From the sequence record OR979723.1: DNA of 48,422 nt; one strand, written 5' to 3'. Below are positions 375-29,056 of this stretch, piece by piece (position 1 is the stretch's first letter; every line of letters starts with the position of its first letter). The stretch is from Escherichia phage ETEP102. Position numbers and translations under genes: made by a program. Under the pieces are notes generated by a model. That model was not told where the DNA came from. It was given only the letters and a program-made list of their open reading frames with translations, and did not search any database.

Positions 375-532
375 GATGGGGGGAATGATGGGGTGAAGTC
401 TGATCCCCTGATCGCCTGGTTGGAACTTTCCGCCACACGTTTTCCATCGCATACGCGTAATTGTGCGTAACGCATGTATAGGCCTTGTATGCTGTGTAAC
501 GATTTGGCCTAAGCATACGCGGCATACGCAGT

Positions 533-622
533 TTTACGCATTAGTTACAATAAAATATCTATATATAACAACCATTTATCTATATTATTATTATTATATA
601 TATCTATGTATACTGTGTAACG
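533..622 (+). repeat. AT-rich ~88-bp element, copy A (second copy at 28967-29056)
   Basis: TTTACGCATTAGTTACAATAAAATATCTATATATAACAACC...ATTATTATTATTATATATAT...CTGTGTAAC; about 85 percent identical to copy B, same orientation. Confidence 0.6.
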
Positions 623-890
623 GTTGTCTAAGTGTGGCATCTGTCAAATTTGATAATATCCCCCACTAATATATAAGAGAGCCATTCCGCCAGGATAATA
701 GGGCCATATGCAGACAATCACCTTTCAGTATGCGTTACACGATATACCGCCTACTTACACCAGTCGTAGCGAGGCCTCCAAGGCGGAAATGTTTCCCGAC
801 CTGTTTTTTACATGCGATTACGGTTGACTTACGCGTTAACTCCCATCATAATTGCCTCACTTAAACGCAACAATCAAATGAGGTAACGAG

Positions 891-1427
891 ATGGATAAGG
901 TAACATTGGGTGATGTGATTCGCGAGATGGTACGCCAGGCAATTAAGTCCGACAAGAAGCTGTGCGTAGTTCCGGTTCGCAAGATATTCAACCTGGTAAA
1001 TGGTCATGATTATCCAGATGAAATACTGGACGAGGTGACGGGGGAGTACATGACTCCCGGGCGTGAGATCGTAGGTCTTAAAAGTTCATACATCTATAAC
1101 ACCGCAGCAAGAATGCAGGAGCTTCGGGATATTGATATGCACGTCAAGCATCGCTTTATCTGGCTGGCGTCAGGAGAGGAAACTGTAGCACGCAAGGCGG
1201 ATGGCGACGGCGCTGATAAGAACCTGTTAATCCAGCTTGAACCCGGGGCACTTAAGCCAACCAAACGAAAGACTGCAGATGTTGAGAGAGAAGTGGCAGC
1301 TATTGAAAGGTTCAAGGCTCGTCTGCTCAAGATCACACCAAACGTCATCGACCTGAAAGGCGAGCAGAAAGAAGGCGCTCTCATTGCCCTGGCACGTTAC
1401 CATGAAATGATTAAGGATACTAACTAA
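891..1427 (+). CDS. hypothetical protein (178 aa)
   Basis: ORF with GAGG about 9 nt upstream of ATG; no recognisable motif. Confidence 0.5.
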   Translation: MDKVTLGDVIREMVRQAIKSDKKLCVVPVRKIFNLVNGHDYPDEILDEVTGEYMTPGREIVGLKSSYIYNTAARMQELRDIDMHVKHRFIWLASGEETVARKADGDGADKNLLIQLEPGALKPTKRKTADVEREVAAIERFKARLLKITPNVIDLKGEQKEGALIALARYHEMIKDTN

Positions 1428-1987
1428 TGTTTAATTTCGACGAAGATAAATTGACCGATGAAAAGGTGATGGAAGTCGCCAGGCAAGATAACCTGCCTCC
1501 ACTTCGTGTGGCAATCAATGCTAATGGATACCGTCAATAATTCAAGTTCTGGCCCAGCGCCGAAGAGATGCTGTGCGTCAAGTTGAGCTACAAATACGGC
1601 GTCGTAGTGAGCAGGATTCGCCGCCAGTGCTGCAACGGGAAGGGAGTGTCTGGCATTCGATCTCTATACGAGGCAATCCGAAAGGTCCAGCCATTCGTCG
1701 GGCGCGAAGGGATTATGCATGACCTGACAAATAACATCATCCCAGCACTACAGGAGGCGGGAATTGTTTGCCTCATTGGCGATAAGATTTATGTGCATCC
1801 GGCCCTGGTGGGAATGTATGAGCGAGACGTGTACAACTGGTGCAGTCAGTACCGATCTGATGCGCCACGCTCTCACTACGTTGAGCCGATTAAGCCGACA
1901 ACCATCCATGGCTATGATGCCGATGAGGTGGAGAAGGCCATCCAGTTCTACCGGAAAGCGAAATCTCTCCTGAATGGTGAATATTAA
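1427..1987 (+). pseudogene. internally deleted remnant paralog of the P-loop ATPase at 44067-45650, with in-frame TAA at 1538-1540
   Basis: 1427-1537 encodes MFNFDEDKLTDEKVMEVARQDNLPPLRVAINANGYRQ (matches N-terminus MFDFNEDKLSIDQVMAVAAADNLPPLRVAINANGYRQ); same frame continues after TAA into ORF 1568-1987 whose GKGVSGIRSLYEAIRKVQPF...IGDKIYVHP matches the ATPase C-terminus; central P-loop region absent. Confidence 0.5.
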
Positions 1988-2199
1988 TGATTATAAAATG
2001 TGTGTATGTAAGGCAAGCCAATCACCACAACCTTTCAGTTGTAAATGGTGGGATATACTCGGCAAAGCCAATCCCTCGCTTTAATGGCTCATACTACATC
2101 AAGGTTGATGGCAATGAGTACATAGTGAAGACGATAGGTGAAGCTCTTATGATAAAGAGCCTTGGTGTGATAATGGCTAAATTCGAAATCGTTCGTTAA
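1987..2199 (+). CDS. hypothetical protein (70 aa)
   Basis: ORF; start overlaps upstream stop (TAATG). Confidence 0.4.
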   Translation: MIIKCVYVRQANHHNLSVVNGGIYSAKPIPRFNGSYYIKVDGNEYIVKTIGEALMIKSLGVIMAKFEIVR

Positions 2200-2217
2200 T
2201 AGCACGAATTGCTAAAC
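2199..2217 (+). promoter_or_regulatory. ATAGCACGAATTGCTAAAC motif copy
   Basis: Palindromic core TAGCA-N5-TGCTA directly after stop codon; 22 nt from TTGCTA to TATGAT (2237-2242); gene ATG at 2273. Confidence 0.5.
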
Positions 2218-2272
2218 AACAAATCGGGTAGTCAGCTATGATTACCCTATCAAAAACGAAGAGGAAATGATT

Positions 2273-2479
2273 ATGGAAACTGTACGCATTGACGATGTTC
2301 ACTTTGACCAAGCAGAGGTCAGCGTTCTGCTCAATCGGACTGGAGTAGTCAAGGCCGTAGTCTCCATTGACTTCGATACTGACGATCAGGGCGTTACCAT
2401 GATGCACTACACACCAGAACAAGCACGCAAGCTGGCGGCAGCGCTTATCCTGGCAGCAGAAGAGGCAGAAAATCAATGA
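2273..2479 (+). CDS. small protein, tandem paralog A (68 aa)
   Basis: ATG 2273 with AGAGGA 7 nt upstream (track start 2267); C-terminal YTPEQARKLAAALILAAEEAE shared with next gene. Confidence 0.5.
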   Translation: METVRIDDVHFDQAEVSVLLNRTGVVKAVVSIDFDTDDQGVTMMHYTPEQARKLAAALILAAEEAENQ

Positions 2480-2694
2480 GAGACATTCGAGTTAACTCAT
2501 CATGGAATCAGGAAACAGAAATCTCAGTAATCAAGGTTCCGTTCGGAAAGATGCGTAAGCGCGTGCACCTGGACCTTTCGCCGGATTCGCAAGTGGATGT
2601 CGCTGGCATGACATACACCGCAGAGCAGGCGCGCGAACTTGCTGCGGCGCTAATTAAGGCAGCTGAGGAAGTGGAGGCGGAAGTCGATGAGTAA
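2476..2694 (+). CDS. small protein, tandem paralog B (72 aa)
   Basis: ATGA start/stop overlap with paralog A; C-terminal YTAEQARELAAALIKAAEEVE. Confidence 0.5.
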   Translation: MRDIRVNSSWNQETEISVIKVPFGKMRKRVHLDLSPDSQVDVAGMTYTAEQARELAAALIKAAEEVEAEVDE

Positions 2695-2887
2695 ATTCAG
2701 GATCGCATTGATTGACACAACAACCGCCTTCGGTCATCCGGTCAAGTGGTATGACGTCCAAAAACGGGTGGCTTTGTTCTGGTGGGTTACAGTGGCCCAT
2801 GCAAGCCAGCTTTCCCAGGCTCGCTACTGGCTGCATAAGTCCGGCGCACCGCATCGCAAAGAGAAAGTAGTGAGGATTATCGAATGA
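2687..2887 (+). CDS. hypothetical protein (66 aa)
   Basis: ORF overlapping neighbours by a few nt (translational coupling). Confidence 0.35.
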   Translation: MSKFRIALIDTTTAFGHPVKWYDVQKRVALFWWVTVAHASQLSQARYWLHKSGAPHRKEKVVRIIE

Positions 2888-3174
2888 AGAAACTAATTTT
2901 ACTGGCAGCACTTGCTCTGGCTGGATGTGATTTCGGAAGCACCCGTGTAGATTCAGAGGCTCGGCAGAAGATGCCAGTGAATGTCAACGATCGCGTCCAG
3001 GTTGTGAAGATTCAGGAGTTCAGTGATGAACTGGCATACGAGAACGTCAGAGCTATATACGTCATCACCGATAAGGACACTGGTCAGGAATATATCGGCT
3101 TAAGCGGTGTCGGGATCGTGGAAGTTGGTCGCCATGGTTGCGGCAAGGGATGCTCCAGAGAAGATGAACGATAG
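2884..3174 (+). CDS. putative lipoprotein (96 aa)
   Basis: N-terminus MKKLILLAALALAGC: signal peptide plus lipobox LAGC. Confidence 0.55.
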   Translation: MKKLILLAALALAGCDFGSTRVDSEARQKMPVNVNDRVQVVKIQEFSDELAYENVRAIYVITDKDTGQEYIGLSGVGIVEVGRHGCGKGCSREDER

Positions 3175-3189
3175 CACTTTTGTTAAAAC
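3171..3189 (+). promoter_or_regulatory. ATAGCACTTTTGTTAAAAC motif copy
   Basis: Overlaps TAG stop of upstream gene; 22 nt to TATAGT (3208-3213) inside hairpin GGAGAC/GTCTCC; ATG at 3255. Confidence 0.5.
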
Positions 3190-3254
3190 TTGCTCGGAGA
3201 CATTAGCTATAGTGTCTCCTGTCAAGTGAACACAAACCAACTGAGGAATCACAT

Positions 3255-3413
3255 ATGAACAGCATCAACCGTTATATCCCTGTGTCAGTGCCAACCAGCG
3301 TCAATATTCACGGCGTCGGAATGCAAGCCTGCGACGATGGAGCATGGGTATCCTACGCAATGCATAAAAAAGAAATCGAGTCCTTACAGGCGCGTTTAAA
3401 GGCCTTAGAATAG
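3255..3413 (+). CDS. small hypothetical protein (52 aa)
   Basis: ATG with GAGGA 8 nt upstream, downstream of motif/hexamer module; below the 60-aa cutoff of the ORF track. Confidence 0.4.
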   Translation: MNSINRYIPVSVPTSVNIHGVGMQACDDGAWVSYAMHKKEIESLQARLKALE

Positions 3414-3494
3414 ACTCAAAAACATCAAATTTCTGCACCGTCGATTATCGCTGACCATGTTGAGCAGGCAATCAAAGAAGCTGTAGGTAAGCTG

Positions 3495-4061
3495 GTGCAC
3501 GAAGCATGTGAGCAATTACTCAAGGATTTGCCTAAGTACAATGGCGATCCGTGTCACAGCACTGTCGATGCATTCGTTAGTGAAATGGCAAAAGCTCCGG
3601 ATGATGGCGTGAAGTGTTATTACCTTGTCGCAGATGAATTGACGAAGAACGGCAAGTTCACTTTCGGTAGCAATTTCGGTGAAGGCAAGGCGCTCACCAT
3701 GTCAACCGCGAAAATGGAACCACGCATCGGCGGTTACGGGTATGGCAATCGTCACGTATGGGCGGTTGGTGAATGTGAATCAGCACGCGATCGCAAGGTG
3801 GCAGTTTGCTACCATGTTAATAACGGCAGTGCGTTTATCAATGGTTGCGAGTACGCGTATGAAATTGATGAATGCGAACCAGGTTGCGAGCCTCGCCTTA
3901 TCCATATCGCACAAGATGCATTCATCTCTGATTTAAAAGGCGATTACCGATGGAAAGCAAAGAGAATTGGTAAGGTTATGAATGCCAAGGCAACGCTAGG
4001 TGACGCATACGCAATAGTAAATCCTGATTGCGGCGTAGTGGCTAAGTTCTATATCAAATAG
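3495..4061 (+). CDS. Cys-rich hypothetical protein (188 aa)
   Basis: ORF in track; first codon is GTG (in-frame TAG three codons upstream), an internal ATG start is possible; many Cys/Gly residues. Confidence 0.45.
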   Translation: MHEACEQLLKDLPKYNGDPCHSTVDAFVSEMAKAPDDGVKCYYLVADELTKNGKFTFGSNFGEGKALTMSTAKMEPRIGGYGYGNRHVWAVGECESARDRKVAVCYHVNNGSAFINGCEYAYEIDECEPGCEPRLIHIAQDAFISDLKGDYRWKAKRIGKVMNAKATLGDAYAIVNPDCGVVAKFYIK

Positions 4062-4076
4062 CACCTTTTGTTAAAA
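4058..4076 (+). promoter_or_regulatory. ATAGCACCTTTTGTTAAAA motif copy with extended -10
   Basis: Overlaps TAG stop; about 24 nt to TGGTATAAT (4095-4103); ATG at 4135. Confidence 0.5.
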
Positions 4077-4134
4077 GGGGTGGTTCATCCTGACTGGTAT
4101 AATCCCCACATCAACCACACGAAAGGATAGCAAC

Positions 4135-4278
4135 ATGCCGCATCAGCAGAGTAACAACAAGTCATGGACCAAGGCCGCAAGGGCTAAGCGTCGCGGTGAA
4201 CTTAAAGATTTCTTTATCAGTGCAGGCCACACACGTAAAGTGGCATTACAATTAGCCAAACAGAGCGAGAAACAATAA
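4135..4278 (+). CDS. small basic protein (47 aa)
   Basis: ATG with GAAAGGA upstream; MPHQQSNNKSWTKAARAKRRGELKDFF...; stop overlaps next start (TAATG). Confidence 0.4.
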   Translation: MPHQQSNNKSWTKAARAKRRGELKDFFISAGHTRKVALQLAKQSEKQ

Positions 4279-4895
4279 TGAATCAGCTTTACACCATGAT
4301 TAAGCATCACCTTCAAACGGTAGCGGTAAACAAGAAAGTTTACATCTTTGATTACGATGGTACTCTGTCGGACAGAACGCACCGCCTGCACAAGCTACCG
4401 ACAAAGGATTTGCGCCTCACTGAGTCATGGCTTGAATTTAACTCATTGAGCAAGTTCGATCGGCCATTCCAGGAAACGATTGACGTAATGAATAGCCTGT
4501 TCGCTTCCGGAGCTTTCATCATCGTGCTCACTGGTCGATCTGATGCGGTTGTTGAGGAATCAACGCAATGGCTGCATGATGCTGGCGCTAAATATAACGT
4601 TCTGGTCATGCGCCGGGCTGATGACAACCGAAAGGATACCATCATCAAGGAAGAGTTTTTACGATACATTGGCTTGCACCGCATCACCGCAGCGTGGGAT
4701 GATAGCGTTAACGTTATTAAGCACTTCCGAAGCCTCGGAATCACTACCTATCATGTGTGCGACTATGGCGATAACGTGCACTCCGCCCTTAAGTCTCACG
4801 GCGTAGAAAAAGTTTGCGAGCACGAATTTAGCGAGCCGCTACCTCCGCATGGTGTTCGCCAGTGCAAAAAATGCAATCTCGTAAGCGGTAAATAA
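4278..4895 (+). CDS. HAD-family polynucleotide 3'-phosphatase (T4 Pnk phosphatase-like)
   Basis: DxDGT motif (IFDYDGTL), LTGRSD, RRADDNRKDTIIKEEF, AWDDSV: pattern of the T4 Pnk C-terminal phosphatase domain as recalled from memory. Confidence 0.65.
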   Translation: MNQLYTMIKHHLQTVAVNKKVYIFDYDGTLSDRTHRLHKLPTKDLRLTESWLEFNSLSKFDRPFQETIDVMNSLFASGAFIIVLTGRSDAVVEESTQWLHDAGAKYNVLVMRRADDNRKDTIIKEEFLRYIGLHRITAAWDDSVNVIKHFRSLGITTYHVCDYGDNVHSALKSHGVEKVCEHEFSEPLPPHGVRQCKKCNLVSGK

Positions 4896-4944
4896 AACTA
4901 ACCTTAACGGGCGCACATCGCGCCCACTACTCAGGAATATAAAA

Positions 4945-5562
4945 ATGTCAAAGATTATCATTCTAAACGGTCCTGCTGGCGTAGGTAAAGACACGATCGG
5001 CAATGCACTGGCAGCAGATTACAACTGCATCCCTACCAGCTTCAAACGTCCGATGTTTGAAATTGCAGCATCCATCCTTGGGGCCAGGGATTTTTCAAAG
5101 TTCATCACAGCATACGACGACCGCGATCAGAAAGAGCAGCCTCAGGGCTTTCTCGGTGGCAAGACCTGCCGTGAGTTCATGATCTGGATTAGCGAAACAG
5201 TGGTCAAGCCGCTTTTTGGCAATCAGCAGTTCGGCAAATTGATGAGCGAACATATCCGTCTGTGTGATGAAGGATTCTGTTTTGTTTGCACTGATGGCGG
5301 GTTCCCTGACGAAGTGATCCAACTCCTTGAAGATGGTCACGATGTCACCCTGGTTCGCCTATTCATGGATGGCAAGACTTTCGATGGCGATAGACGTGAT
5401 TACATTCGTCTTAAGGAATTGTACTACCCTTATTACAAGAAATATAACGAGCATGATGTGCATCTGGTTAATGGTGATATTGAAGGCGGTGTGCTGTCGG
5501 TTGTTAGAGCTTGCGGTATCCGTCCTGCAATCGACGAGTGGGCCGACGATATTCCCTGGTAA
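4945..5562 (+). CDS. P-loop kinase (candidate polynucleotide 5'-kinase partner)
   Basis: Walker A GPAGVGKDT near N-terminus; adjacent to phosphatase gene. Confidence 0.55.
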   Translation: MSKIIILNGPAGVGKDTIGNALAADYNCIPTSFKRPMFEIAASILGARDFSKFITAYDDRDQKEQPQGFLGGKTCREFMIWISETVVKPLFGNQQFGKLMSEHIRLCDEGFCFVCTDGGFPDEVIQLLEDGHDVTLVRLFMDGKTFDGDRRDYIRLKELYYPYYKKYNEHDVHLVNGDIEGGVLSVVRACGIRPAIDEWADDIPW

Positions 5563-5580
5563 ATAGCACGAATTGCTAAG
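5563..5580 (+). promoter_or_regulatory. ATAGCACGAATTGCTAAG motif copy
   Basis: Immediately after TAA stop; 22 nt to TATAGT (5601-5606); ATG at 5636. Confidence 0.5.
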
Positions 5581-5600
5581 CCCGCTCCGGCGGGTTTTGT
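5581..5600 (+). terminator. hairpin plus T-run (terminator-like, embedded in promoter spacer)
   Basis: CCCGC-TCCG-GCGGG followed by TTTTGTT. Confidence 0.45.
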
Positions 5601-5635
5601 TATAGTTAGTTCACACCAAACGAGAGGAAACAAAG

Positions 5636-5794
5636 ATGATTACTATCAACCTGTCAGACAAGCAAGCCGCCACACTGAAATATTTACTCGCAAGCCAGCC
5701 TATGCATTTCTCGGCCGATGAGTACTACGAGATGGTCAAAGAGGTTCACACTCAGATCAACAATCAACAATTCGACGAAAACGAAGGTGAATAG
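5636..5794 (+). CDS. small hypothetical protein (52 aa)
   Basis: ATG with GAGAGGA 7 nt upstream; MITINLSDKQAATLKYLLASQ... Confidence 0.4.
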   Translation: MITINLSDKQAATLKYLLASQPMHFSADEYYEMVKEVHTQINNQQFDENEGE

Positions 5795-5958
5795 CCATGA
5801 AGTTCAATAAGACCGAGAAGAAAAGTTGATCGCATCAATGATAAGCGCCGCCACCGCCGACTCTGCCGACAGTACGGTAAACTTCGATTCAATGAGCCTG
5901 GTATGTTCTGCTTTATCGCTTGGCGAGCAATGAAAGATATTGCGCGAAACCATAAGCG

Positions 5959-5979
5959 ATAGCACTTTTTGTTAAAAAC
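5959..5979 (+). promoter_or_regulatory. ATAGCACTTTTTGTTAAAAAC motif copy
   Basis: 22 nt to TATAGT (5997-6002) inside hairpin GGGGTA/TACCCC; leader CCATCGAAAC; ATG at 6033. Confidence 0.5.
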
Positions 5980-6032
5980 AATTCACGGGGTAGCGGTATA
6001 GTTACCCCATCGAAACTAACGAGGAAGCAGAA

Positions 6033-6254
6033 ATGAAAATTGAAATTATCGACGTTGACTACCAGGTAGATCAGATCGATCAGGGGGTTCTCACACTGCG
6101 TGAATGTGGTTTTCAGGTTGGCGATGTAGTAGAGGTATCCGGTCACTACGTTAATGGAGACTTGTCGATTCAGGCAATCCGTGAAACGGAGCTGGTTAAG
6201 GTCGGCAATGAAATCAGTATCAGTGATCATGAATACAAGGTGGTTGAGGAATGA
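6033..6254 (+). CDS. hypothetical protein (73 aa)
   Basis: ORF with GAGGAAG upstream. Confidence 0.45.
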   Translation: MKIEIIDVDYQVDQIDQGVLTLRECGFQVGDVVEVSGHYVNGDLSIQAIRETELVKVGNEISISDHEYKVVEE

Positions 6255-6816: not shown

Positions 6817-6978
6817 ACTCAAAAAGCTCATTGACAGCCATCTCACTGACTGGTATCTTTAATCACGTACACAAGAGGCTACCAAGTAGCAACGAGCGGT
6901 TCGTAAGCCGCATGTGCAGTGAAGCAAATCGAGGCATTGTGAAAGCCTTACGGATTCCGTAACCGTAACTCATTCAAA

Positions 6979-7053
6979 GCTCCGCTAGCTCAATTGGATA
7001 GCAGCAACGACCTTCTAAGTCGTATGTTACTGGTTCGAATCCAGTGCAGAGCG
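6979..7053 (+). tRNA. tRNA-Arg (anticodon TCT), encoded CCA follows at 7054-7056
   Basis: Hand-folded cloverleaf: acceptor 6979-6985/7046-7052 (one C-A mismatch), D-loop with GG, anticodon stem 7007-7011/7019-7023, loop CTTCTAA, T-loop TTCGAAT. Confidence 0.75.
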
Positions 7054-7060
7054 CCAATTT

Positions 7061-7159: not shown

Positions 7160-7177
7160 CCAATAACGAGGTTTGAT

Positions 7178-7578: not shown

Positions 7579-7584
7579 TTTATT

Positions 7585-8235: not shown

Positions 8236-8748
8236 ATGATTAATGCAAAGCAGTTGCCAGACCTATCAATTCTAAACCATATATTTGATTATGATCCTGA
8301 GAGCGGCGTGCTTTACTGGAAGAACCCAACCAGTAAGAGGGTGAGGCCTGGCCGTGAGGCTGGAACGCTGCATAAACCAAGTGGAAGGTTACAGGTTCAA
8401 ATATCAGGTAGCATCTACAAAGTATCAAGAGTTGTGTTTTACATGCACTACGGAAGGCAACCAGAAGGAGTTGTTGACCATGTTGATCACAACACTCTGA
8501 ACAACAGGCCTGATAATTTAAGGGATGCCACGATGAGTCAGAACGGAATGAATAAATCAATGCAGTCAAATAATACATCTGGATATAAAGGCGTTAGCTT
8601 CCATAAAGGCAGGGGTGAGTTTATAGCTTACGCAAAAGTTGACGGAAAGATGGTGTTTGGTGGGTGGCATAAATCAGCGATAGACGCCGCTTACTCAGCA
8701 GCAAATCTAAGAGAAAAATTGCACGGAGAATTTGTACATCATGGCTAA
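8236..8748 (+). CDS. HNH homing endonuclease
   Basis: VVDHVDHNTLNNRPDNLR HNH core; YKGVSF...FIAYAKVDGK AP2-like tail; inserted between terminase genes. Confidence 0.8.
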   Translation: MINAKQLPDLSILNHIFDYDPESGVLYWKNPTSKRVRPGREAGTLHKPSGRLQVQISGSIYKVSRVVFYMHYGRQPEGVVDHVDHNTLNNRPDNLRDATMSQNGMNKSMQSNNTSGYKGVSFHKGRGEFIAYAKVDGKMVFGGWHKSAIDAAYSAANLREKLHGEFVHHG

Positions 8749-10321
8749 CAAAATATTGATTTGGGAAGAATTGACGCAAAGGGAAAAGTCGGTAGTGAAG
8801 GTGATGAGCGAAAGGTCTTTTAGTGATTTTATGCGCATATGGTTCGCTTTGATACAGGCTCAAAAGTTTAGGTCTAATTGGCACTTCAACTACCTTTGCT
8901 GGAAGGTTGAGCAGATAATCAACGGTGAGATACAAAACATCATATTCAACATTACCCCAGGCTCTGGCAAGACTGAGATCTTCTCCATTCACATGCCAGT
9001 GTATTGCATGTTCAGGAGCGAGAAGATAAGGAATCTTAACCTCTCATTCTCTGATAGTCTCGTTAAGGATAACGGGATCAGGACGCGTGAGATTATCGGG
9101 TCTGATGAGTTCCAGGAGCTTTGGCCATGCAAACTAGCAAAGGCTTCAGGTGGTGACATTACCGCTCTAAACTCAAAGGAAAAGGCATGGTTAACTCTAA
9201 CTTCACGTGCGATCGGTGGTCAGGTAACTGGTAAGCGTGGCGGTTATATGGATGATGGCTTCACCGGAATGCTGACGCTTGATGACCCTGAGAAGCCGAA
9301 AGACCTATACTCAGCAGTAAAGAGAAAGGCTGGTCACACGCTGCTAAAGAACACCGTTCGATCGCGAAGAATGAATGACAAGACACCATGCGTTGTTGTT
9401 CAGCAGCGACTACACGTAAACGATGCGACGTGGTTCCTGATGAATGGCGGCATGGGTGGGATGGAGTTTGAGCAGGTAATCATTCCGGCTCTGGTAACTG
9501 AGGAATACAGAGACACGCTTCCTGACTGGTTGAAAGAAGAGTTTGACCGCGACGTTTTATCGTCAGAGCCTGTTGAGATTGATGGTGTTAAGCATTATTC
9601 ATTCTGGCCTGCAAAAGAAAGCGCGCAAAGTTTACTGGCGTTACGCGAAGCTGACCTGTACACCTTCGAGTCTCAGTATCAGCAAAAGCCTATCGCGCTC
9701 GGTGGTAACGCATTCAAATCGGAATGGTTCCAGTATTACGGCGATGGTGAGAAAGCCAGCATGCCAAAACCTGAACGATTCGAGTACCTTTTCACCACTG
9801 CGGATACAGCTCAAAAGGCTGAGGAGATACACGACTACAGCGTATTTGTTTTGTGGGGTAAGTATAAGGATCGCATTTATTTCATTGATGGCATACGCGG
9901 AAAGTGGGAAGCTCCAGAGCTTGAGAAGATGGCATTGAACTTTTACGGTAATTGTTTCAAGTGGGCCAAGGAGAATCGGGTGTCACTTCGCAGGGTTTAC
10001 ATTGAAGACAAGGCAAGCGGAACGGGCCTGATCCAGTCAATCAATAAGAAGCTGCCTATTGACATTACGCCAGTTCAGCGAGATACAGATAAGGTTACTC
10101 GCGCAATGGATGCGGCACCAATCATGAAGGCAGGGCGGATCGTGTTTCCAGAATCACATCCAATGCTTACCGACATGGAGGCGGAACTCATTGGGTTCAC
10201 ATTTGACGATAGCCATCCTCACGATGACATCGTGGATAACGTGGTTGACGCTGGCAACTTCGAAATGAACTTGCTTGACGATCCTGTAGCGAGAATGAAG
10301 CGACTGGCGGGACTTAAATAA
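8741..10321 (+). CDS. terminase large subunit
   Basis: Walker A-like ITPGSGKTEIFS; 527 aa; ATG 8741 (track start TTG 8732). Confidence 0.8.
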   Translation: MANKILIWEELTQREKSVVKVMSERSFSDFMRIWFALIQAQKFRSNWHFNYLCWKVEQIINGEIQNIIFNITPGSGKTEIFSIHMPVYCMFRSEKIRNLNLSFSDSLVKDNGIRTREIIGSDEFQELWPCKLAKASGGDITALNSKEKAWLTLTSRAIGGQVTGKRGGYMDDGFTGMLTLDDPEKPKDLYSAVKRKAGHTLLKNTVRSRRMNDKTPCVVVQQRLHVNDATWFLMNGGMGGMEFEQVIIPALVTEEYRDTLPDWLKEEFDRDVLSSEPVEIDGVKHYSFWPAKESAQSLLALREADLYTFESQYQQKPIALGGNAFKSEWFQYYGDGEKASMPKPERFEYLFTTADTAQKAEEIHDYSVFVLWGKYKDRIYFIDGIRGKWEAPELEKMALNFYGNCFKWAKENRVSLRRVYIEDKASGTGLIQSINKKLPIDITPVQRDTDKVTRAMDAAPIMKAGRIVFPESHPMLTDMEAELIGFTFDDSHPHDDIVDNVVDAGNFEMNLLDDPVARMKRLAGLK

Positions 10322-22024: not shown

Positions 22025-22027
22025 AAT

Positions 22028-22051: not shown

Positions 22052-22066
22052 ATTGGAGGTAATCAC

Positions 22067-22813: not shown

Positions 22814-23535
22814 TTAACGGCAAAATCAAGATGGCAATCTTCGAACATGCGAAATCAGTATACCCCAATGAATGCTGCGGCGTGGTAACTCAAAAAGGCC
22901 GAGTGCAAAAATACTGGCCCATTGACAACGTTCACTCTGAACCGGAAAAAGGATTCCAGCTTGACTCTGTGCAATACGCCTGCGTTGATGATAACGCTGA
23001 CCTAACCACGATCGCCATTGTTCACAGCCACACCGGAGACGGGGCTACGACCTTACCAAGCGCTCACGACTTGTGCGTATTGAATGAGATGGAATTGCCT
23101 TGGGTGATTGTCAGTCTGCCGGAAGGTGACATGAGAATTGTTCATCCTGAAGCCATGCCTCTGATTGGTCGTCCTTGGTCGCTTGGATCTTTCGATTGCT
23201 GGGGACTGGTTATGGCATGGCACAAAGAGCACGGCGTAATCCTGAATGACTTCCGAAAGCCTTACGAGTGGTGGAAGCCTGAATATGGTGAGAATCTCTA
23301 CCAGGACAACTACATTAAAGAGGGTTTTATTGAAACCGGAAAGGATCCTGAACCTGGCGATATGATCATCATGAAATTGCAAGCTGAGGTATGGAACCAC
23401 GCGGGGATTTACCTTGGAAATAATCAACTCCTGCATCATGCATTTGGTAAGCTGTCAAAGACAGATATTTATTCAGGATGGTTCCAGGAGCATACGGTAA
23501 TGGTATGTAGGCATAAGGAGTTAGAGAAATGTTAA
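22810..23535 (+). CDS. tail assembly protein (lambda K-like, JAB/MPN plus NlpC/P60)
   Basis: HSHTGDGATTLPSAHD metalloprotease-like motif and CWGLVMAW...H cysteine peptidase-like motif. Confidence 0.7.
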   Translation: MINGKIKMAIFEHAKSVYPNECCGVVTQKGRVQKYWPIDNVHSEPEKGFQLDSVQYACVDDNADLTTIAIVHSHTGDGATTLPSAHDLCVLNEMELPWVIVSLPEGDMRIVHPEAMPLIGRPWSLGSFDCWGLVMAWHKEHGVILNDFRKPYEWWKPEYGENLYQDNYIKEGFIETGKDPEPGDMIIMKLQAEVWNHAGIYLGNNQLLHHAFGKLSKTDIYSGWFQEHTVMVCRHKELEKC

Positions 23536-24122
23536 AAACAATCAAGCTATCAGGTTCGCTTGGCCGCAGGTTCGGCGTTTTCCACAAATATGACGTTGAC
23601 TCATACCCAGAGGCTATCCGAGCGCTGTCATCTCAGGTTGCAGGATTCAAGGAGTTCATGCAAAGCGAGATCGGCTCTCGTATGCACTTTGCTGTGTTCG
23701 TTGATGGTAAAAACGTTGGGCCGCATGATGAATCAGCATTCAGTTGCGCGAAAGAGGTTCGTATTATACCAATTCCAACAGGCTCAAAAAATGGCGGTAT
23801 GTTCCAGATTGTTGTCGGTGCAGTGATGATGGTAGCGGCATTCTACACTGGCGGCGCCTCACTGGCTCTCATGGGTACATTCGCCACGTCAGCATTCATG
23901 ATGGGCGGCGCCATGGTCCTTGGCGGAGTGATGCAAATGATTTCACCGCAGCAAGGCGGCTCAAAGATGGAGGTTCAGAGCAGCAAGAATAAGCCTTCAT
24001 ATGCTTTCGGTGGCGCAGTTAACACAACGGCAGCTGGAAACCCGATCCCGGTCCCTTATGGTTATCGAACCGTTGGCGGAGCGACATTCTCAGCGTATTC
24101 AGTTGCAGAGGATATGTCATAA
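23529..24122 (+). CDS. tail assembly protein (lambda I-like)
   Basis: 197 aa with hydrophobic Gly/Ala/Met-rich central segment; position before J-like gene. Confidence 0.65.
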   Translation: MLKTIKLSGSLGRRFGVFHKYDVDSYPEAIRALSSQVAGFKEFMQSEIGSRMHFAVFVDGKNVGPHDESAFSCAKEVRIIPIPTGSKNGGMFQIVVGAVMMVAAFYTGGASLALMGTFATSAFMMGGAMVLGGVMQMISPQQGGSKMEVQSSKNKPSYAFGGAVNTTAAGNPIPVPYGYRTVGGATFSAYSVAEDMS

Positions 24123-24129
24123 GAACAAA

Positions 24130-24151
24130 CCCGCCTTGCGCGGGTTTTTTT
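24130..24151 (+). terminator. rho-independent terminator
   Basis: CCCGC-CTTG-CGCGGG then TTTTTTT. Confidence 0.6.
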
Positions 24152-24156
24152 ACGCC

Positions 24157-24164
24157 TGTATAAT
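24157..24164 (+). promoter_or_regulatory. extended -10 promoter TGTATAAT
   Basis: 35 nt upstream of ATG 24200; leader CACGAAAGG. Confidence 0.45.
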
Positions 24165-24199
24165 GAATCTTCTATAAATCGCACGAAAGGCTAAACATC

Positions 24200-27100
24200 A
24201 TGATTAAAAATAATGTAGTGACTGGCCGAAAGGGTGGAAGCAGTAAACCTCATACCCCACAGGAGATGGAAGACAACCTGATCTCAATCAACAAGATTAA
24301 GGTTTTGCTCGCTGTCAGTGATGGTGAGGTTGACGCGAATTTCTCATTAAAGGACTTATATCTTAATGATGTTCCTGTAATTGCACCCTCTGGAGAAGTT
24401 AACTATGAAGGCGTTAAGGCTGAGTTTCGCCCAGGCACACAGACGCAGGACTACATCAAAGGATTTAACGACACGGCGGCTGAGTTCACTGTAGGTCGTG
24501 AATTGAAAACAACTACGCCTTACGTGATCTCGGTAACGAATAAGCAGCTATCAGCCGTTCGCGTAAAAATCCTGATGCCTCGAGGCGTTACAACGAAAGA
24601 AAACGGCGATATGGTCGGGGTTGTCGTGAAGTGGGCCGTAGATATGGCGGTTGATGGAGGGAGCTACCAGGAAGTTTTGCTTGACACTATAGACGGGAAA
24701 ACACTAAGCGGATATGACAAAACTAAGCGTATTGACTTGCCGGCGTTTAATAGTCAAGTCCTGCTGCGGGTTCGGCGGGTTACTCCTGATTCAACTAATT
24801 CGCGCGTCGTTGACACGATAAACATACAGTCTTACGCCGAGGTTATTGATGCAAAGTTCCGTTACCCTCTGACTGGTCTTGTTTACGTTGAGTTTAACAG
24901 CGAGCTATTCCCGCAGATTCCAAGCATTAGCACGAAAAAGAAATGGAAGATCATCAACGTTCCGAGCAACTACGACCCAGTACTGAGAGAATACAGCGGC
25001 ACATGGGATGGCAGTTTTAAAAAAGCGTGGTCAAATAACCCAGCGTGGGTGCTTTATGATTTGATTACCAATCAGAGATATGGACTCGACCAACGAGAGT
25101 TGGGTATCGCCGTTGATAAGTGGTCGCTCTATGATGCTGGTCAATACTGCGATCAGAAAGTTCCTGACGGTCACGGAGGGTTGGAGCCTCGCTACCTTTG
25201 CGACGTGGTAATCCAGTCTCAGGTTGAGGCTTACAATCTGGTTAGAGATATTTGCTCAATATTCCGAGGGATGAGCTTTTGGAACGGCGAGAGCCTTTCA
25301 ATTGTCATAGACCGACCGAGAGAGGCTTCATACATTTTCACTAACGATAACGTCGTTGATGGCTCATTTGCCTATACGTTCGCAAGTGAAAAAAGCATGT
25401 ATACAACTTGTAACGTCACATTTGACGACGAGCAAAACATGTACAGCCAGGATATTGAGGGAGTATTCGACCTTAACGCATCGTTACGGTTCGGGCACAA
25501 CCCTACAAGCATCACGGCGATCGGATGCACTCGACGCAGTGAGGCTAACCGTCGAGGCCGATGGGTTCTTAAAACAAACCTTCGCAGCACGACGGTAAGT
25601 TTTGCAACTGGTCTTGAGGGTATGATCCCGATGATTGGCGACGTAGTGGCGATCGCTGATAACTTCTGGTCAAGCAACCTGACTCTCTCATTGTCAGGTC
25701 GCGTCATGGAAGTTTCTGGTCTGCAAGTGTTCACTCACTTTAAGGTTGATGCTCGCGCTGGTGATTTTATCATCGTCAACAAACCTGATGGAAATCCTGT
25801 GCGCCGCACGATTTCAAAGGTGTCGGCAGATGGCAAGACGATTGAGCTTAATGTTGGTTTTGGCTTTGATGTTCAGCCTAACACTGTTTTCGCAATCGAC
25901 AGAACTGACATAGCTTTGCAGCAATACGTCGTAACTGGAATCACGAAGGGCGACGGTGATGATGAGTTCACATACAGCATCACGGCGGTTGAGTATGACC
26001 AAAACAAATACGACGAGATCGACTACGGCGTAAATATTGATGACCGACCAACCAGTATTGTAGATCCTGACAACATGCAGCCACCTAAAAACATTGTAGT
26101 TTCATCATACTCTCGCATTGTCCAGGGGATGAGCGTAGAAACAATGGTTATTGGATGGGGTAAGGTTCAGTACGCAAGCAAGTACGATGTGCAGTGGCGA
26201 AAGGATAACGGTAACTGGATGAACGTACCGCGCACAGCAAGCTCAGAGGTTGAGGTAGAAGGTATTTATGCTGGTAATTATCACGTACGCGTAAGGAGCA
26301 TCTCAAGCGGCGGAAACACGTCCCCATGGTCTGACGTTGTCAGCGTTGGGTTGACTGGTAAGATTGGGAAGCCAGATAAACCAACGGTCATAACCGCGTC
26401 TGACGACCAGGTATTTGGGATCAGAGTTAAATTGGGCTTCCCGGAAGGTTCTGGCGACACTGCCTACACTGAATTGCAGCAGATACCAGATAATGGTGCC
26501 GGAGGTCACACTGGTGAGGAGAATGCAAGTCTATTAACAATGATTCCTTACCCTCAGTACGAGTACTGGCACTCAACATTACCAGCAGGTTATGTAAACT
26601 GGTACAGGGCGAGATTGGTAGACAGGATTGGGAACGCCTCTGACTGGTCTGATATTGTTCGCGGAATGTCAAGCGATGACGTTGAGTCCATCATTGGAGA
26701 AATAAAGGTTGATATCGAGGGTTCCGAGGGTTTTAAGTACCTACAGCAGAACTCCATTGATTCAAACGTAGCTATTCAGGCGCAAGCGGAATCAATCCTT
26801 GAGAACGCCCTTGCAAACGACACAGACGTACGTCGAATGACCAAGGAGAACGGCAAGAGAAAGGCTGAATACGTTCAGGCGGTGAATCTTATTGCCGATG
26901 AAACTCAGGCTCGCGTAGAGGCTCTCACGCAGCTTAAAGCGCAGATTGATGATGAGGTCGTAGCCTCAATAACTGAAGTTCAGACGGCACTAGCCACCGA
27001 AACGGAAGCAAGGACCACGGCGGATACAGTTCTGAGCGCTCAGCTTGGAGATACTCAGGCAGCACTGAATGAAAAGCTTGATTCCTGGGTGGATGCGGAA

Positions 27101-27580
27101 TCCGCTGGTGCTCAGTACGGTGTTAAGTTAGGTCTAAAATATAATGGGGTTGAGTATAGCGCAGGGATGAGCATGGAACTTGTTGGCAGTGGTGCTGGCG
27201 TTAAGAGTCAGCTCATCTTTGACGCAAGCAGATTCGCTATCAGTAATGGCATTGGATCTGGTTCCGGTCAGTGGGCATTGCCTTTTGTTGTTGAGAGCAA
27301 CCAGGTGTTCATACAGAGCGCCGTGATCAAGGATGGCTCAATCACTAACGCCAAGATTGGTAACAGGATTCAATCAAATAACTACGTGGCAGGTAGCACT
27401 GGCTGGGCGATTGATAAATCAGGAAGTGCTGAATTTAGTAACGCAACCGTAAGGGGCAACCTGTACGCAAACAGCGGAAACTTCGCATTCAACGGCACCA
27501 ATAACACGGTTCAGATTAACGGAAACGGAATCACTGTTAACCTGGCGAATGGTGGGAGGGTTGTTGTAGGAACATTCTAA
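24200..27580 (+). CDS. tail tip / central fiber host-specificity protein (lambda J-like)
   Basis: 1126-aa ORF following the M/L/K/I-like genes. Confidence 0.8.
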   Translation: MIKNNVVTGRKGGSSKPHTPQEMEDNLISINKIKVLLAVSDGEVDANFSLKDLYLNDVPVIAPSGEVNYEGVKAEFRPGTQTQDYIKGFNDTAAEFTVGRELKTTTPYVISVTNKQLSAVRVKILMPRGVTTKENGDMVGVVVKWAVDMAVDGGSYQEVLLDTIDGKTLSGYDKTKRIDLPAFNSQVLLRVRRVTPDSTNSRVVDTINIQSYAEVIDAKFRYPLTGLVYVEFNSELFPQIPSISTKKKWKIINVPSNYDPVLREYSGTWDGSFKKAWSNNPAWVLYDLITNQRYGLDQRELGIAVDKWSLYDAGQYCDQKVPDGHGGLEPRYLCDVVIQSQVEAYNLVRDICSIFRGMSFWNGESLSIVIDRPREASYIFTNDNVVDGSFAYTFASEKSMYTTCNVTFDDEQNMYSQDIEGVFDLNASLRFGHNPTSITAIGCTRRSEANRRGRWVLKTNLRSTTVSFATGLEGMIPMIGDVVAIADNFWSSNLTLSLSGRVMEVSGLQVFTHFKVDARAGDFIIVNKPDGNPVRRTISKVSADGKTIELNVGFGFDVQPNTVFAIDRTDIALQQYVVTGITKGDGDDEFTYSITAVEYDQNKYDEIDYGVNIDDRPTSIVDPDNMQPPKNIVVSSYSRIVQGMSVETMVIGWGKVQYASKYDVQWRKDNGNWMNVPRTASSEVEVEGIYAGNYHVRVRSISSGGNTSPWSDVVSVGLTGKIGKPDKPTVITASDDQVFGIRVKLGFPEGSGDTAYTELQQIPDNGAGGHTGEENASLLTMIPYPQYEYWHSTLPAGYVNWYRARLVDRIGNASDWSDIVRGMSSDDVESIIGEIKVDIEGSEGFKYLQQNSIDSNVAIQAQAESILENALANDTDVRRMTKENGKRKAEYVQAVNLIADETQARVEALTQLKAQIDDEVVASITEVQTALATETEARTTADTVLSAQLGDTQAALNEKLDSWVDAESAGAQYGVKLGLKYNGVEYSAGMSMELVGSGAGVKSQLIFDASRFAISNGIGSGSGQWALPFVVESNQVFIQSAVIKDGSITNAKIGNRIQSNNYVAGSTGWAIDKSGSAEFSNATVRGNLYANSGNFAFNGTNNTVQINGNGITVNLANGGRVVVGTF

Positions 27581-27583
27581 AAT

Positions 27584-27610
27584 AAAAGCCCCGAAAGGGG
27601 CTTTATCTTT
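27584..27610. terminator. bidirectional rho-independent terminator
   Basis: AGCCCC-GAAA-GGGGCT flanked by A-run and T-rich run between convergent genes. Confidence 0.65.
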
Positions 27611-28565
27611 AATACATATTTGGAAGGTATGGAAGTGACATTGAGATGTTTGTGTTGAATGGGAACTGAGCACCAGTCTGAGTCGAGTAGTTACCAATTA
27701 CGCTGCCAAACTCACTCCTAACGGATCCTCCTGACATTACAACTCCCTTGTATCGAAGGTTATTGTACCCGCCAGTTACCCTTGTATATGCGCCAGTCCT
27801 GAGTATTGGGAAGTAACCACCTCCTATTGACTGGAATGAGTTACTCAATTGAAGGAATCCACCAAGCACAAATGGCCTTTTAACGGTTGAGAAAACAACC
27901 TGACCTGAAGGATTCACTATGGTAATCCCCCTGCCTCCAACTGGAGCTGTGTTGTTGAAAATAACCAGATCGACACTGGCACTAGCCGCTACATTGTCAA
28001 TTCCTGTGTATGTATTGCTTCTACAGAGAATTCTTGAACCATCAAACTCAAGCGTCACGTTTGGATTATTCCATCTTCCGAAAGGAACGCCAGTAACTGG
28101 AAGTGTGTAGCTACCATTCACGGTAACTGTTCCAACATACTGAGCCGTTAAAAGCCTTGAGTTGGTAGTGATCGATACAAAATCAGTTGAGTCGGCAACA
28201 AGAATACCCTGACCAGTAGAGGCGCCCATCACCTCAAAGCAATTACCTGAGAAGTTTATCAACCTACCATTAGCGCCGTTAAAGTTACTAACGTTTATCC
28301 GTCCTTGCGTGTTTGATACGCGCTGGAATCCATTCAAATAATAAACCTCTGGTATTACATCGAAATCTATTACATCAACAGCCTTTGTTGGTAGCATGAA
28401 TGCAGTAGATCCGCTTGTGTGAGCAAGTCCAAATGTCAACCCACCATTTGATGAGTCAAATCCAGATGTTGGAACGCTTCCTGTTACGTTTGGCATTCTA
28501 AGTCCTGCCGTAATCTCCATCGCTGGCCTTCCATCATTCAGGTCGATTAGAATACCCTGTGGCAT
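27609..28565 (-). CDS. putative receptor-binding / tail fiber-like protein
   Basis: 318 aa rich in Gly/Ser/Thr/Asn/Val; ATG 28565 with AAGGAG 8 nt upstream (track start GTG 28574); TAATG-coupled to upstream lipoprotein gene. Confidence 0.4.
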   Translation of the reverse strand: MPQGILIDLNDGRPAMEITAGLRMPNVTGSVPTSGFDSSNGGLTFGLAHTSGSTAFMLPTKAVDVIDFDVIPEVYYLNGFQRVSNTQGRINVSNFNGANGRLINFSGNCFEVMGASTGQGILVADSTDFVSITTNSRLLTAQYVGTVTVNGSYTLPVTGVPFGRWNNPNVTLEFDGSRILCRSNTYTGIDNVAASASVDLVIFNNTAPVGGRGITIVNPSGQVVFSTVKRPFVLGGFLQLSNSFQSIGGGYFPILRTGAYTRVTGGYNNLRYKGVVMSGGSVRSEFGSVIGNYSTQTGAQFPFNTNISMSLPYLPNMY

Positions 28566-28807
28566 TATTTCCACTCCTTAGAGCCGTGGTCTTTAACGGA
28601 GCCGCCGTAACCGCCACCATTAGCCTTAATTCCGTCGTAGCGCACGTCAACTTCGCCGGAAGGTACAACCACACCATTTTTCCATTTAGCTACGCACGCG
28701 CCGTTTGCTTGCGTTGCACACCAACCGTCAGGACGATGACCTGATGAACAACCAACCGTCATGATTACTGCCGCTGAGATGATTGCTAATTTGATGAAGT
28801 TAGTCAT
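28565..28807 (-). CDS. small lipoprotein, Cor/Llp-like superinfection-exclusion candidate
   Basis: 80 aa; [22 protein letters not shown] signal peptide plus lipobox; GAGGA RBS; function inferred from size and context. Confidence 0.5.
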
Positions 28808-28873
28808 TTTGTATTCCTCATTAAGTTGTTTCGTTTCGATGGAGTAACTATACACGCAACGAGCGATCGAGTC

Positions 28874-28893
28874 TTTAGCTATTCGTGCTATTG
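28874..28893 (-). promoter_or_regulatory. ATAGCACGAATAGCTAAA motif copy (minus orientation)
   Basis: Minus strand: CAATAGCACGAATAGCTAAAG, about 23 nt, TATAGT, leader CCATCGAAACGA, then lipoprotein ATG 28807. Confidence 0.45.
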
Positions 28894-28966
28894 TATACGC
28901 GTAACCGATGTAACTCGATGTATACAATATCATCCGCGGAAAATGATATACGCGCTGTTACGCCAA

Positions 28967-29056
28967 TTTACGCATTGGTTACATTAAAATATCTATATAT
29001 ATCAACCTTTTACTCTTATTATTATTATATATATATTACTGTGTATATCATGTAAC
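28967..29056 (+). repeat. AT-rich ~88-bp element, copy B
   Basis: TTTACGCATTGGTTACATTAAAATATCTATATATATCAACC...ATTATTATTATATATATATTACTGTGTA...GTAAC. Confidence 0.6.

Follow-up and report, generated by a model that had tools for sequence, protein, structure and literature searches.

Paralogous arrays of helically phased pentamers around two AT-rich cores are candidate replication origins in the T1-like phage ETEP102

The replication origins of staphylococcal pathogenicity islands (SaPIs) consist of penta- or hexanucleotide iterons that lie in opposite orientation on the two sides of an AT-rich region and are recognized by a self-loading helicase through its winged helix (PMC9371898). The pac-type siphovirus SPP1 has two origins of similar organization, oriL and oriR, with direct repeats as well as an AT-rich DNA unwinding element (DUE), kilobases apart (PMC6316719). 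One SPP1 origin lies in a noncoding segment among late genes, and oriL is inside a gene; the second origin, next to recombination functions, has a proposed role in the switch to concatemer synthesis (PMC6316719). No origin is known for the T1-like phages (PMC11447400, PMC7718038). None was found in the study of SU57 (PMC7718038), and the re-annotation of TLS reported no iterons anywhere in that genome (PMC11447400). Here we analyzed the 48.4-kb sequence of Escherichia phage ETEP102 (record OR979723.1; hereafter the window), which is the genome of a T1-like siphovirus of the Drexlerviridae, a coliphage. Its two largest noncoding regions, hub A and hub B, carry modules of short phased sites around an AT-rich core, and we regard these twin modules as the strongest candidates at present for the replication origins of T1-like phages. 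Elements of this kind are well known, and the arrays in T1-like phages are newly described: our literature search found no T1-family origin, no transcription map of the hubs, and no description of these repeats.

The nearest records to the window are Nouzillyvirus phages, for example, CJ19 and TH30. Both hubs are divergent noncoding regions. Hub A (170 to 890) lies between a leftward early gene (start codon at 169 to 167) and a rightward DUF7174 gene (ATG at 891). Hub B (28808 to 29322) lies between a phage lipoprotein gene (minus strand, start at 28807) and an exonuclease VIII-like gene (ATG at 29323); the rightward operon beyond it contains the exonuclease VIII-like, Erf, and SSB genes. Neither hub contains a credible open reading frame (ORF); the small ORFs present have no ribosome-binding site and are not conserved between the paralogues.

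An earlier note on this DNA had reported clusters of TACGC and ACGCA with a recurring GT(G)TAAC variant over positions 440 to 28980. The clusters are real, but this span merely brackets two separate loci, at about 430 to 835 and 28885 to 29262. All of the quoted strings are present, at most 1 to 2 nt from where they had been placed. In hub A, these are CATACGCG (450 to 457), TGCGTAACGCATG (464 to 476), CATACGCGGCATACGCAG (514 to 531), and CTGTGTAACG (492 to 501 and 613 to 622); in hub B, they are TATACGCGTAACC (28894 to 28906), ATATACGCGCTGTTACGCC (28946 to 28964), and CGTGTAACC (29251 to 29259). TTTACGCATT occurs in both (533 to 542 and 28967 to 28976).

Counted on both strands, TACGC has 4.6 times its genome-wide density in the hubs. 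The 100-nt windows of the genome that are richest in this word start at 436 (6 copies) and 28870 (5 copies), the next best holding 3, and 6 copies per 100 nt were reached in 0 of 200 order-1 or order-3 Markov genomes. The recurrence of GT(G)TAAC was borne out as well, with 9 of the 26 genome copies of TGTAAC falling within the hubs, which make up 2.5% of the sequence. As a composition-matched background, we used 500 dinucleotide-preserving shuffles of each module. TACGC occurs 7 times in hub A versus a shuffle mean of 2.2 (1 of 500 shuffles reached 7) and 5 times in hub B versus a mean of 1.6 (7 of 500 reached 5). The observed count of TGTAAC was reached by none of the 500 shuffles in either hub. 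ACGCA was enriched in hub A (7 of 500 shuffles reached the observed count) but not against the local shuffles in hub B (187 of 500), so that enrichment of this last word held for hub A only.

We found that a single 5-bp site, WTACR (variants TTACG, ATACG, TTACA, and ATACA), accounts for TACGC, ACGCA, and GT(G)TAAC, which are overlapping readings of it on either strand. GTGTAAC is the reverse of GTTACAC, which is one base off GTTACGC. WTACR recurs at intervals of 9 to 11 bp, or one helical turn. All 11 WTACR triples with this spacing in the 48.4-kb genome are in the hubs, against an order-2 Markov expectation of 0.03, as are 20 of the 22 phased pairs. The observed numbers of phased pairs and triples were reached by 0 of 500 dinucleotide shuffles of each hub. 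An unbiased scan of all 4-mers for phased triples ranked TACG and TACA at the top, exclusively in the hubs; this exact 4-mer discovery was too strict for T1 and TLS. In total, there are 17 sites in hub A and 22 in hub B, in five arrays each, and about 16 are positionally equivalent. The helical phasing of WTACR is the strongest signal and was absent from the earlier note. Also new are the paralogy of the hubs, the identity of TACGC and GTAAC as one site, the one-turn 5-mer unit, and the arrays that reach to the right of the AT tract, up to the promoters.

Both hubs have the same order of elements: a minus-strand array, a plus-strand array of four sites, the AT core, a minus-strand pair, and two spaced plus-strand arrays of three sites, the last followed by a sigma70-like promoter. 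In hub A, array A1 (451 to 499, minus strand) has five sites with 5' ends at 499, 490, 479, 470, and 460 (spacing of 9, 11, 9, and 10), an additional plus-strand site at 451, and the near-palindrome ATACGCGTAA inside. Array A2 (515 to 549, plus strand) has ATACG at 515, ATACG at 524, TTACG at 534, and TTACA at 545 (spacing of 9, 10, and 11) and adjoins the AT core. It corresponds to CATACGCGGCATACGCAG...TTTACGCATT and supplies the sole invariant words in diverged A-type modules. AT core A (550 to 610) is 87% A+T, with AATAAAATATCTATATATAACAACCATTTA followed by (TTA)n(TA)n. Array A3 (607 to 620, minus strand) has two sites with 5' ends at 620 and 611, is inverted with respect to A2 across the core, and includes the CTGTGTAACG copy at 613 to 622. 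One of its sites is also the -35 hexamer of a leftward sigma70-like match (593 to 621, minus strand; GTTACA-17-TATAAT, 10/12), which is a consensus match only. Array A4 (735 to 759, plus strand; TTACA at 735, the degenerate ATACC at 744, and TTACA at 755) is a right-hand degenerate copy of the left array. Array A5 (808 to 833, plus strand; TTACA at 808, TTACG at 818, and TTACG at 829) overlaps the -35 hexamer of the rightward sigma70-like promoter (824 to 852, plus strand; TTGACT-17-CATAAT, 10/12) that precedes the gene at 891.

In array B1 of hub B (28895 to 28926, minus strand), the 5' ends of the sites are at 28923, 28913, and 28904, and there is an additional plus-strand site at 28895 (in TATACGCGTAACC). 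Array B2 (28948 to 28983, plus strand) has ATACG at 28948, TTACG at 28958, TTACG at 28968, and TTACA at 28979 (spacing of 10, 10, and 11) and adjoins AT core B (28984 to 29045; 86% A+T). Array B3 (29042 to 29055, minus strand) has two sites with 5' ends at 29055 and 29046, inverted with respect to B2 across the core. A leftward sigma70-like match, again by consensus only, lies at the right edge of the core (29024 to 29051, minus strand; ATGATA-16-TATAAT, 10/12). Array B4 (29153 to 29177, plus strand; ATACA at 29153, ATACA at 29162, and TTACA at 29173) falls within a 41-nt direct repeat of the left array (28931 to 28971 versus 29136 to 29176, 71% identical). It is followed by a terminator-like hairpin with a T run (29187 to 29210, plus strand; GGCTGGTCCTGATAGCC TTTTTAT). 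Array B5 (29228 to 29257, plus strand; ATACA at 29228, TTACA at 29238, and ATACG at 29248, plus a minus-strand site at 29257) includes CGTGTAACC and lies directly upstream of the -35 hexamer of the rightward sigma70-like promoter (29262 to 29289, plus strand; TTGACT-16-TATAGT, 10/12), which precedes the exonuclease VIII-like gene.

Comparison of the two sequences indicates that hub A and hub B are ancient paralogues. They can be aligned over about 380 nt, including a 70-nt stretch at 84% identity. Column identity is 72% in the sites, 83% in the AT core, and 35%, essentially random, in the rest (Fisher 1e-10), where the site figure must be read with the tendency of aligners to favor identical words. 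Arrays 2 and 3 have the same offsets from the core in both hubs to within 1 nt, and the left array has a degenerate direct repeat in the right-hand triplet, at a distance of about 205 nt. Because the positions of the sites are kept while the spacers are randomized, selection appears to act on the sites.

The AT core of each hub looks like an unwinding element. Among the 70-nt duplex windows of the genome, AT core A has the lowest stability, at -65.8 kcal/mol versus a mean of -96.1 (standard deviation [SD], 5.4), and AT core B has the second lowest, at -67.9 kcal/mol. In each of the nine complete genomes that we compared, no other 70-nt window is as unstable as the two cores, which lie more than 5 SD from the mean; they range from -63 to -70 kcal/mol, against a mean of about -96 (SD, about 5.5) and next windows at -75 to -79. 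One of the two exact matches to the integration host factor (IHF) consensus in the genome is in AT core B (TATCAACCTTTTA, 29000 to 29012), and the aligned position in hub A differs by one base. RNA and single-stranded DNA folding of hub segments gave no stability signal.

The nine genomes represent Nouzillyvirus, Braunvirinae, Tunavirinae (T1), and Tempevirinae (TLS), and each has two modules, one toward the genome end and the other upstream of the exonuclease VIII-like gene. In TLS, where the homologous layout was judged by inspection, a module is still upstream of recE although the region is not divergent there. A comparison with relatives had been proposed as a check, and the sites proved to be conserved in the modules of related phages. 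Across 12 modules from the window's group and the Braunvirinae, the only invariant words to the left of the core are TACG..ACGC..TTACGC..GTTACA, a 10-bp ladder, and the spacers vary freely. In six relatives, every phased WTACR triple is located in the hubs. A 121-nt core of hub B (28940 to 29060) is 95 to 99% identical in about 80 phage records, including Rtp. It is 97 to 98% identical to its Braunvirinae counterparts, whereas the rest of the genomes is about 74% identical over about 40% of the length. In 38 IMG/VR loci that were found through the exonuclease VIII-like protein, the AT core of hub B is the least stable 70-nt window in 37, and the hub B core always lies 330 to 390 nt upstream of the exonuclease VIII-like gene. 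An autocorrelation peak at 9 to 10 bp is present in every clade. The enriched words are clade specific, yet common to both hubs of one genome: TACGCG and TGTAAC in the window, TGTAACA in T1 (6 of 6 genome copies in its hubs), and GTGAACA, AGAACAA, and TGGAACA in TLS (7-mers common to both hubs).

Two proteins encoded by the window are candidate binders of these sites. One is a DUF3987 helicase (44067 to 45650, minus strand; 527 aa), whose residues 451 to 521 form a predicted C-terminal winged helix. The leftward transcription unit that begins at hub A reaches this gene after about 3.2 kb, assuming that the genome ends join. The AlphaFold2 model (predicted local distance difference test score [pLDDT], 88) has a C-terminal H-S-H-H-S-S unit (helix-strand-helix-helix-hairpin) over these residues. 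In a Foldseek search against the PDB, all top matches were MCM subunits, and one Cdc6/Orc1 chain was among the matches listed. The winged-helix model and the MCM matches agree with the published placement of the DUF3987 family among the superfamily 6 (SF6) replicative helicases with a winged helix-turn-helix at the C terminus (PMC4889955). A sequence search of the PDB, SaPI Rep entries included, returned nothing for the helicase at an E value of ≤1 except noise.

The other candidate is a helix-turn-helix (HTH) protein (34607 to 35080, minus strand; 157 aa, phrog_2856) encoded between the genes for the primase (33626 to 34549) and the superfamily 2 (SF2) helicase. It is the counterpart of the T1 ST23 "transcriptional regulator." Its Cro-like HTH is below the Pfam threshold, and the putative recognition helix differs among three clades. 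The PDB sequence search gave nothing usable for it, and NCBIfam gave nothing for either candidate. The helicase and the HTH protein are 92% and 89 to 91% identical, respectively, to their Braunvirinae counterparts. Most proteins are at 40 to 70%, including the primase (55 to 57%), the SF2 helicase (50%), and the large terminase subunit TerL (49 to 50%). In comparison with T1 and TLS, the helicase C terminus is 39% and 53% identical, respectively, and the helicase core is 61% and 76% identical. Against these two phages, whose hubs carry other enriched words, the C terminus thus diverges faster than the core.

The window also encodes a stand-alone winged-helix paralogue (1568 to 1987, plus strand; 139 aa, phrog_7327), about 0.7 kb to the right of hub A, with 52% identity over 63 aa to the helicase C terminus. 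Its product may compete for the same sites. A neighboring 37-aa ORF (1428 to 1541, plus strand) resembles the helicase N terminus, and a 125-nt inverted repeat joins the two loci (1412 to 1536 versus 45541 to 45665); ORFs 1428 to 1541 and 1568 to 1987 could be what is left of a gene, or a free domain for origin binding. In three distant phages outside the Drexlerviridae that encode a DUF3987 helicase, the helicase operon is immediately preceded by a hub of 560 to 690 nt in which short motifs are repeated (L050, 9060 to 9680; L051, 9203 to 9759; L052, 8513 to 9199). The L050 and L052 hubs contain the least stable 70-nt window of the locus. The L050 hub has inverted G5/C5 repeats, and its first downstream gene encodes a distant homologue of the window HTH protein; the L051 hub has CTTACA words, inverted by eye, plus a (CAA)n microsatellite.

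The modules share with SaPI origins the short iterons (6 to 12 copies in SaPIs), the central AT-rich region, and the opposite orientation on either side (PMC9371898). The hubs have 17 and 22 sites of 5 nt, against at least six iterons of 5 to 6 nt in an origin of this type, and the AT cores are flanked by A2 or B2 (four plus-strand sites) and A3 or B3 (two minus-strand sites). The SaPI reader is the C-terminal winged helix of an AAA+ hexameric helicase, a fold that is predicted here for the DUF3987 protein. The iteron sequence varies between SaPI elements, as the enriched words do between phage clades here. The differences are that there are two copies per genome, each with about 16 to 22 sites in five arrays that extend to the promoters, that the modules are not immediately downstream of the helicase gene, and that the helicase has no homology to SaPI Rep in the PDB sequence search, its listed fold matches being MCM and Cdc6/Orc1. 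As in SPP1, two loci are alike and combine direct repeats with an AT-rich element, and hub B precedes the exoVIII-erf-ssb genes. However, SPP1 uses the origin-binding protein gp38, a loader, and a DnaB-type helicase (PMC6316719). Pfam and PHROG scans of the replication-region proteins, which are a subset of the window ORFs, gave no hit to a DnaB-type helicase or loader; they identified the MCM-like DUF3987 helicase, the SF2 helicase, a P4-alpha-like primase, and the HTH protein. In addition, oriL is genic, whereas both modules here are intergenic.

Satellite phage P4 has two separated cis regions, ori and crr, with the same short repeats, which are bound by the C-terminal domain of the alpha primase-helicase. 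The window resembles P4 in having two separated cis regions with shared short repeats and a primase that is P4-alpha-like by the T1 annotation. It differs in that the P4 iteron is an octamer (TGTTCACC) rather than a pentamer, the P4 helicase is of the SF3 type and fused to the primase, and the repeat layout is unlike. The bacterial oriC has opposed arrays of low-affinity DnaA sites in two orientations, to which the two oppositely oriented arrays are similar, but the hubs have no DnaA boxes; the only TTWTNCACA match in the genome is at 23578. The modules also differ from a lambda-type origin, as the arrays are intergenic, have no credible ORF over them, and are not inside an initiator gene.

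From the sites, their phasing, paralogy, and conservation, the instability of the duplex, and the protein folds, we infer a binder, a melting step, and an origin function. We suggest that the twin modules are two copies of a lytic replication origin, each an iteron array with an unwinding element, that also touches the early promoters, and we put the probability of this reading at about one-half. We rank it first because of the SaPI-like layout together with a helicase that has a predicted winged-helix tail, and because of the dual-origin precedent of SPP1. It agrees with the suggestion in the earlier note of an origin or a binding array for a phage factor, to which the phasing, the sites conserved between the paralogues, the flanks of the AT core, and the coconservation of the proteins lend support. 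In this scenario, a phage protein would cover the DNA along one face, to the left and to the right of the AT tract. The most probable binder would be the winged-helix C terminus of the MCM-like helicase, possibly with or instead of the HTH protein, and IHF may bend the core. The opposed arrays would bring assemblies of initiator or helicase into a head-to-head position and open up the AT tract, after which the phage primase and host polymerase would take over. Through the promoter-proximal arrays, the same phage protein would also be coupled to how the early rightward promoters are controlled.

Several observations weigh against two origins. Both modules are directly upstream of early rightward promoters, and arrays 4 and 5 reach the -35 hexamer, as they would in a purely regulatory region. 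AT-richness is expected anyway in a divergent intergenic region, and GC skew is uninformative on origins because it tracks gene orientation. The hubs are not adjacent to the helicase gene, in contrast to SaPI origins, and hub B is about 15 kb away from it. A Cro-like HTH is more usually found on palindromes than on direct repeats. Mosaic ancestry confounds the coconservation of the helicase with the HTH protein, which comes from one clade comparison; an unrelated 82-aa protein (46978 to 47226, minus strand; phrog_4448) shows the same pattern, at 92% identity to its Braunvirinae counterparts, which is much higher than is usual in the genome. The T1 clade has a weaker helical-phase signal (z, 2.3 to 4.0), and a single pentamer is not definable for the TLS clade, where RAACA gives one phased triple versus 0.28 expected.

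The sequence alone does not separate an origin from a regulatory array. The arrays may be purely transcriptional, that is, operator or enhancer sites for a phage regulator, such as the HTH protein, that switches the two early rightward operons, early genes and exoVIII-erf-ssb, on or off, with the AT tract as an UP-element, a bend, or a promoter cluster. The modules precede sigma70-like promoters by 60 to 350 nt, A5 and B5 extend up to the -35 hexamer or into it, and promoter consensus matches occur on both strands of the AT cores. The HTH protein, called a transcriptional regulator in T1 and TLS, is coconserved with the core, and the TLS module keeps its place upstream of recE in a region that is not divergent. 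However, each module has at least 16 sites over about 400 bp, far beyond known phage operators, and neither the promoter of the HTH gene nor any other promoter has a WTACR pair. The 95 to 99% conservation of the 121-nt core across genera exceeds that of any flanking promoter or gene, the AT cores are extreme minima of duplex stability in every genome checked, and opposed arrays around an AT tract are the signature of SaPI origins (PMC9371898). We regard a purely transcriptional role as the main rival, though less probable than two origins. A packaging or recombination function, in which the arrays are terminase (pac) sites or boundary sequences for modular exchange, appears very unlikely. Hub A does fall in the region that contains the start of the T1 record and of its 2.8-kb terminal repeat, and genomes that are otherwise mosaic have an almost identical hub B core, with module boundaries adjoining it. 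Nevertheless, the small terminase subunit TerS is only 38 to 40% identical to those of CJ19 and TH30, while the hub B core is 95 to 99% identical; because TerS has diverged and the core has not, the sites do not covary with the terminase. There is also no packaging rationale for a second copy 28 kb away, and a recombination linker would leave the site-specific conservation in randomized spacers unexplained.

A fixed host factor is another candidate reader. OmpR/PhoB-family regulators bind direct repeats about 10 to 11 bp apart, on one face of the helix. A winged-helix response regulator of this family (RstA, OmpR, or CpxR), together with IHF, might tie early phage functions to host physiology. 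The direct repeats here are phased at 9 to 11 bp, which fits this spacing, and the core of hub B has the exact IHF-consensus match. TACA-N6-TACA is matched only twice in the genome, both times in hub B (28909 to 28922, minus strand, TACATCGAGTTACA; 29229 to 29242, plus strand, TACATCGAATTACA), and both copies nearly match the E. coli RstA box (TACATNTNGTTACA), although this is suggestive only. On the other hand, scans for CpxR-like and OmpR-like sites, made with consensus sequences rather than with curated matrices, were at chance level genome-wide. Moreover, E. coli phages differ in the words at homologous positions: ACGC/TTACA in the window, TGTAACA in T1, and GTGAACA/AGAACAA in TLS. As these words differ among phages that share a host, a coevolving phage factor fits better than a fixed host factor, and we consider the host-regulator explanation unlikely. 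It is hardly credible that the functional element is a small noncoding RNA or leader transcript running from the AT core to a terminator-like hairpin, with incidental repeats. There are promoter-like matches in the core, hub B has a hairpin and T run 150 to 200 nt downstream, and similar hairpins were seen by eye in other clades. However, a tRNA was the only hit of the Rfam scan of the window, the predicted folding of the candidate transcripts is not better than that of shuffled sequences (z, +1.14 and -1.38), the two paralogues have the sites in common but differ in the sequence between them, and a 9- to 11-bp period found in both orientations is a feature of duplex DNA rather than RNA. Finally, the clusters might be an accident of AT-rich intergenic composition, as the lack of ACGCA enrichment in hub B would allow. 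A chance origin is excluded by the Markov, shuffle, and phasing statistics (no shuffle in 500 matched the phased pairs and triples), to which the conservation in relatives is added.

Extending the two-origin reading to the family, we propose tentatively that all Drexlerviridae may replicate from two paralogous origins. The MCM-like helicase would load itself through its winged-helix tail on opposed phased pentamers around an IHF-bent unwinding element, pentamer and reader would coevolve between clades, and the free winged helix (ORF 1568 to 1987) would compete with or regulate initiation. If this is true, the modules would be a bacterial-virus counterpart of the double-hexamer logic of eukaryotes, archaea, and SaPIs. 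Confirmation would provide a second example, in a virulent Gram-negative phage, of an origin for a self-loading MCM-like or winged-helix helicase and a tractable model for the coevolution of initiator specificity and iterons. T1 is one of the seven classical T phages. Our analysis supplies base-resolution candidates, namely, two modules with about 16 sites each, an unwinding element, and two named candidate binders, and it makes the long-open question of the T1 origin directly testable. The Drexlerviridae include common laboratory and fermentation contaminants and phage therapy candidates, and the modules are conserved across the family. If the arrays are regulatory instead, they still mark the main early control regions of the family.

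Other repeats in the window are distinct from the arrays. A conserved 21-nt intergenic repeat, aaATAGCACnnnTTGnTAAAA, has been described as being of unknown function (PMC11447400) and is the only repeat so far known for the Drexlerviridae. Its counterpart in the window, ATAGCACnnnTTGnTAAA (the ATAGCAC element), has 13 copies versus 0.39 expected, all in the direction of transcription, each single and about 76 nt upstream of many genes (2199, 4058, 5563, 5959, 28874 [minus], 30360, 33561, 35093, 38168, 39616, 41627, 46137 [minus], and 47739 [minus]). Several copies are followed by a conserved leader similar to TCGTTTCGATGRAGTAA. This repeat has a different sequence from that of the WTACR arrays and is neither phased nor clustered, and its sole copy near a hub (28874 to 28891, minus strand) is outside the arrays; therefore, the hub arrays are not this repeat. 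A cluster of TTGCA/GCAAT(GAT) words at 264 to 372, in hub A only, has 7 GCAAT or ATTGC per 120 nt versus a maximum of 3 elsewhere and contains GCAATGAT three times, out of four copies in the genome. Across genera, the cluster is 89 to 96% conserved, though TerS (8236 to 8748) is 38 to 40% identical to those of the nearest relatives, and base 1 of the T1 record falls inside the homologous array. This cluster may be pac or a second binding array. The adjacent large terminase subunit (8732 to 10321) is 92 to 93% identical to those of CJ19 and TH30, so that the difference looks like a mosaic swap of TerS only.

The tRNA that Rfam found as the only hit in the whole window is a tRNA-Arg(TCT) gene (6979 to 7056, plus strand). 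Immediately after the SF2 helicase gene, there is a homing-endonuclease-like ORF with HNH and AP2 domains (37272 to 37769, plus strand). The hub B module had no match in a plasmid collection. A perfect 33-nt inverted repeat of terminator-like hairpins, AAAATAAAAGCCCCGAAAGGGGCTTTATCTTTA, at 27579 to 27611 and 31579 to 31611 flanks a 4-kb cassette of two leftward genes, hub B, and exoVIII-erf-ssb, and it may mark a module boundary.

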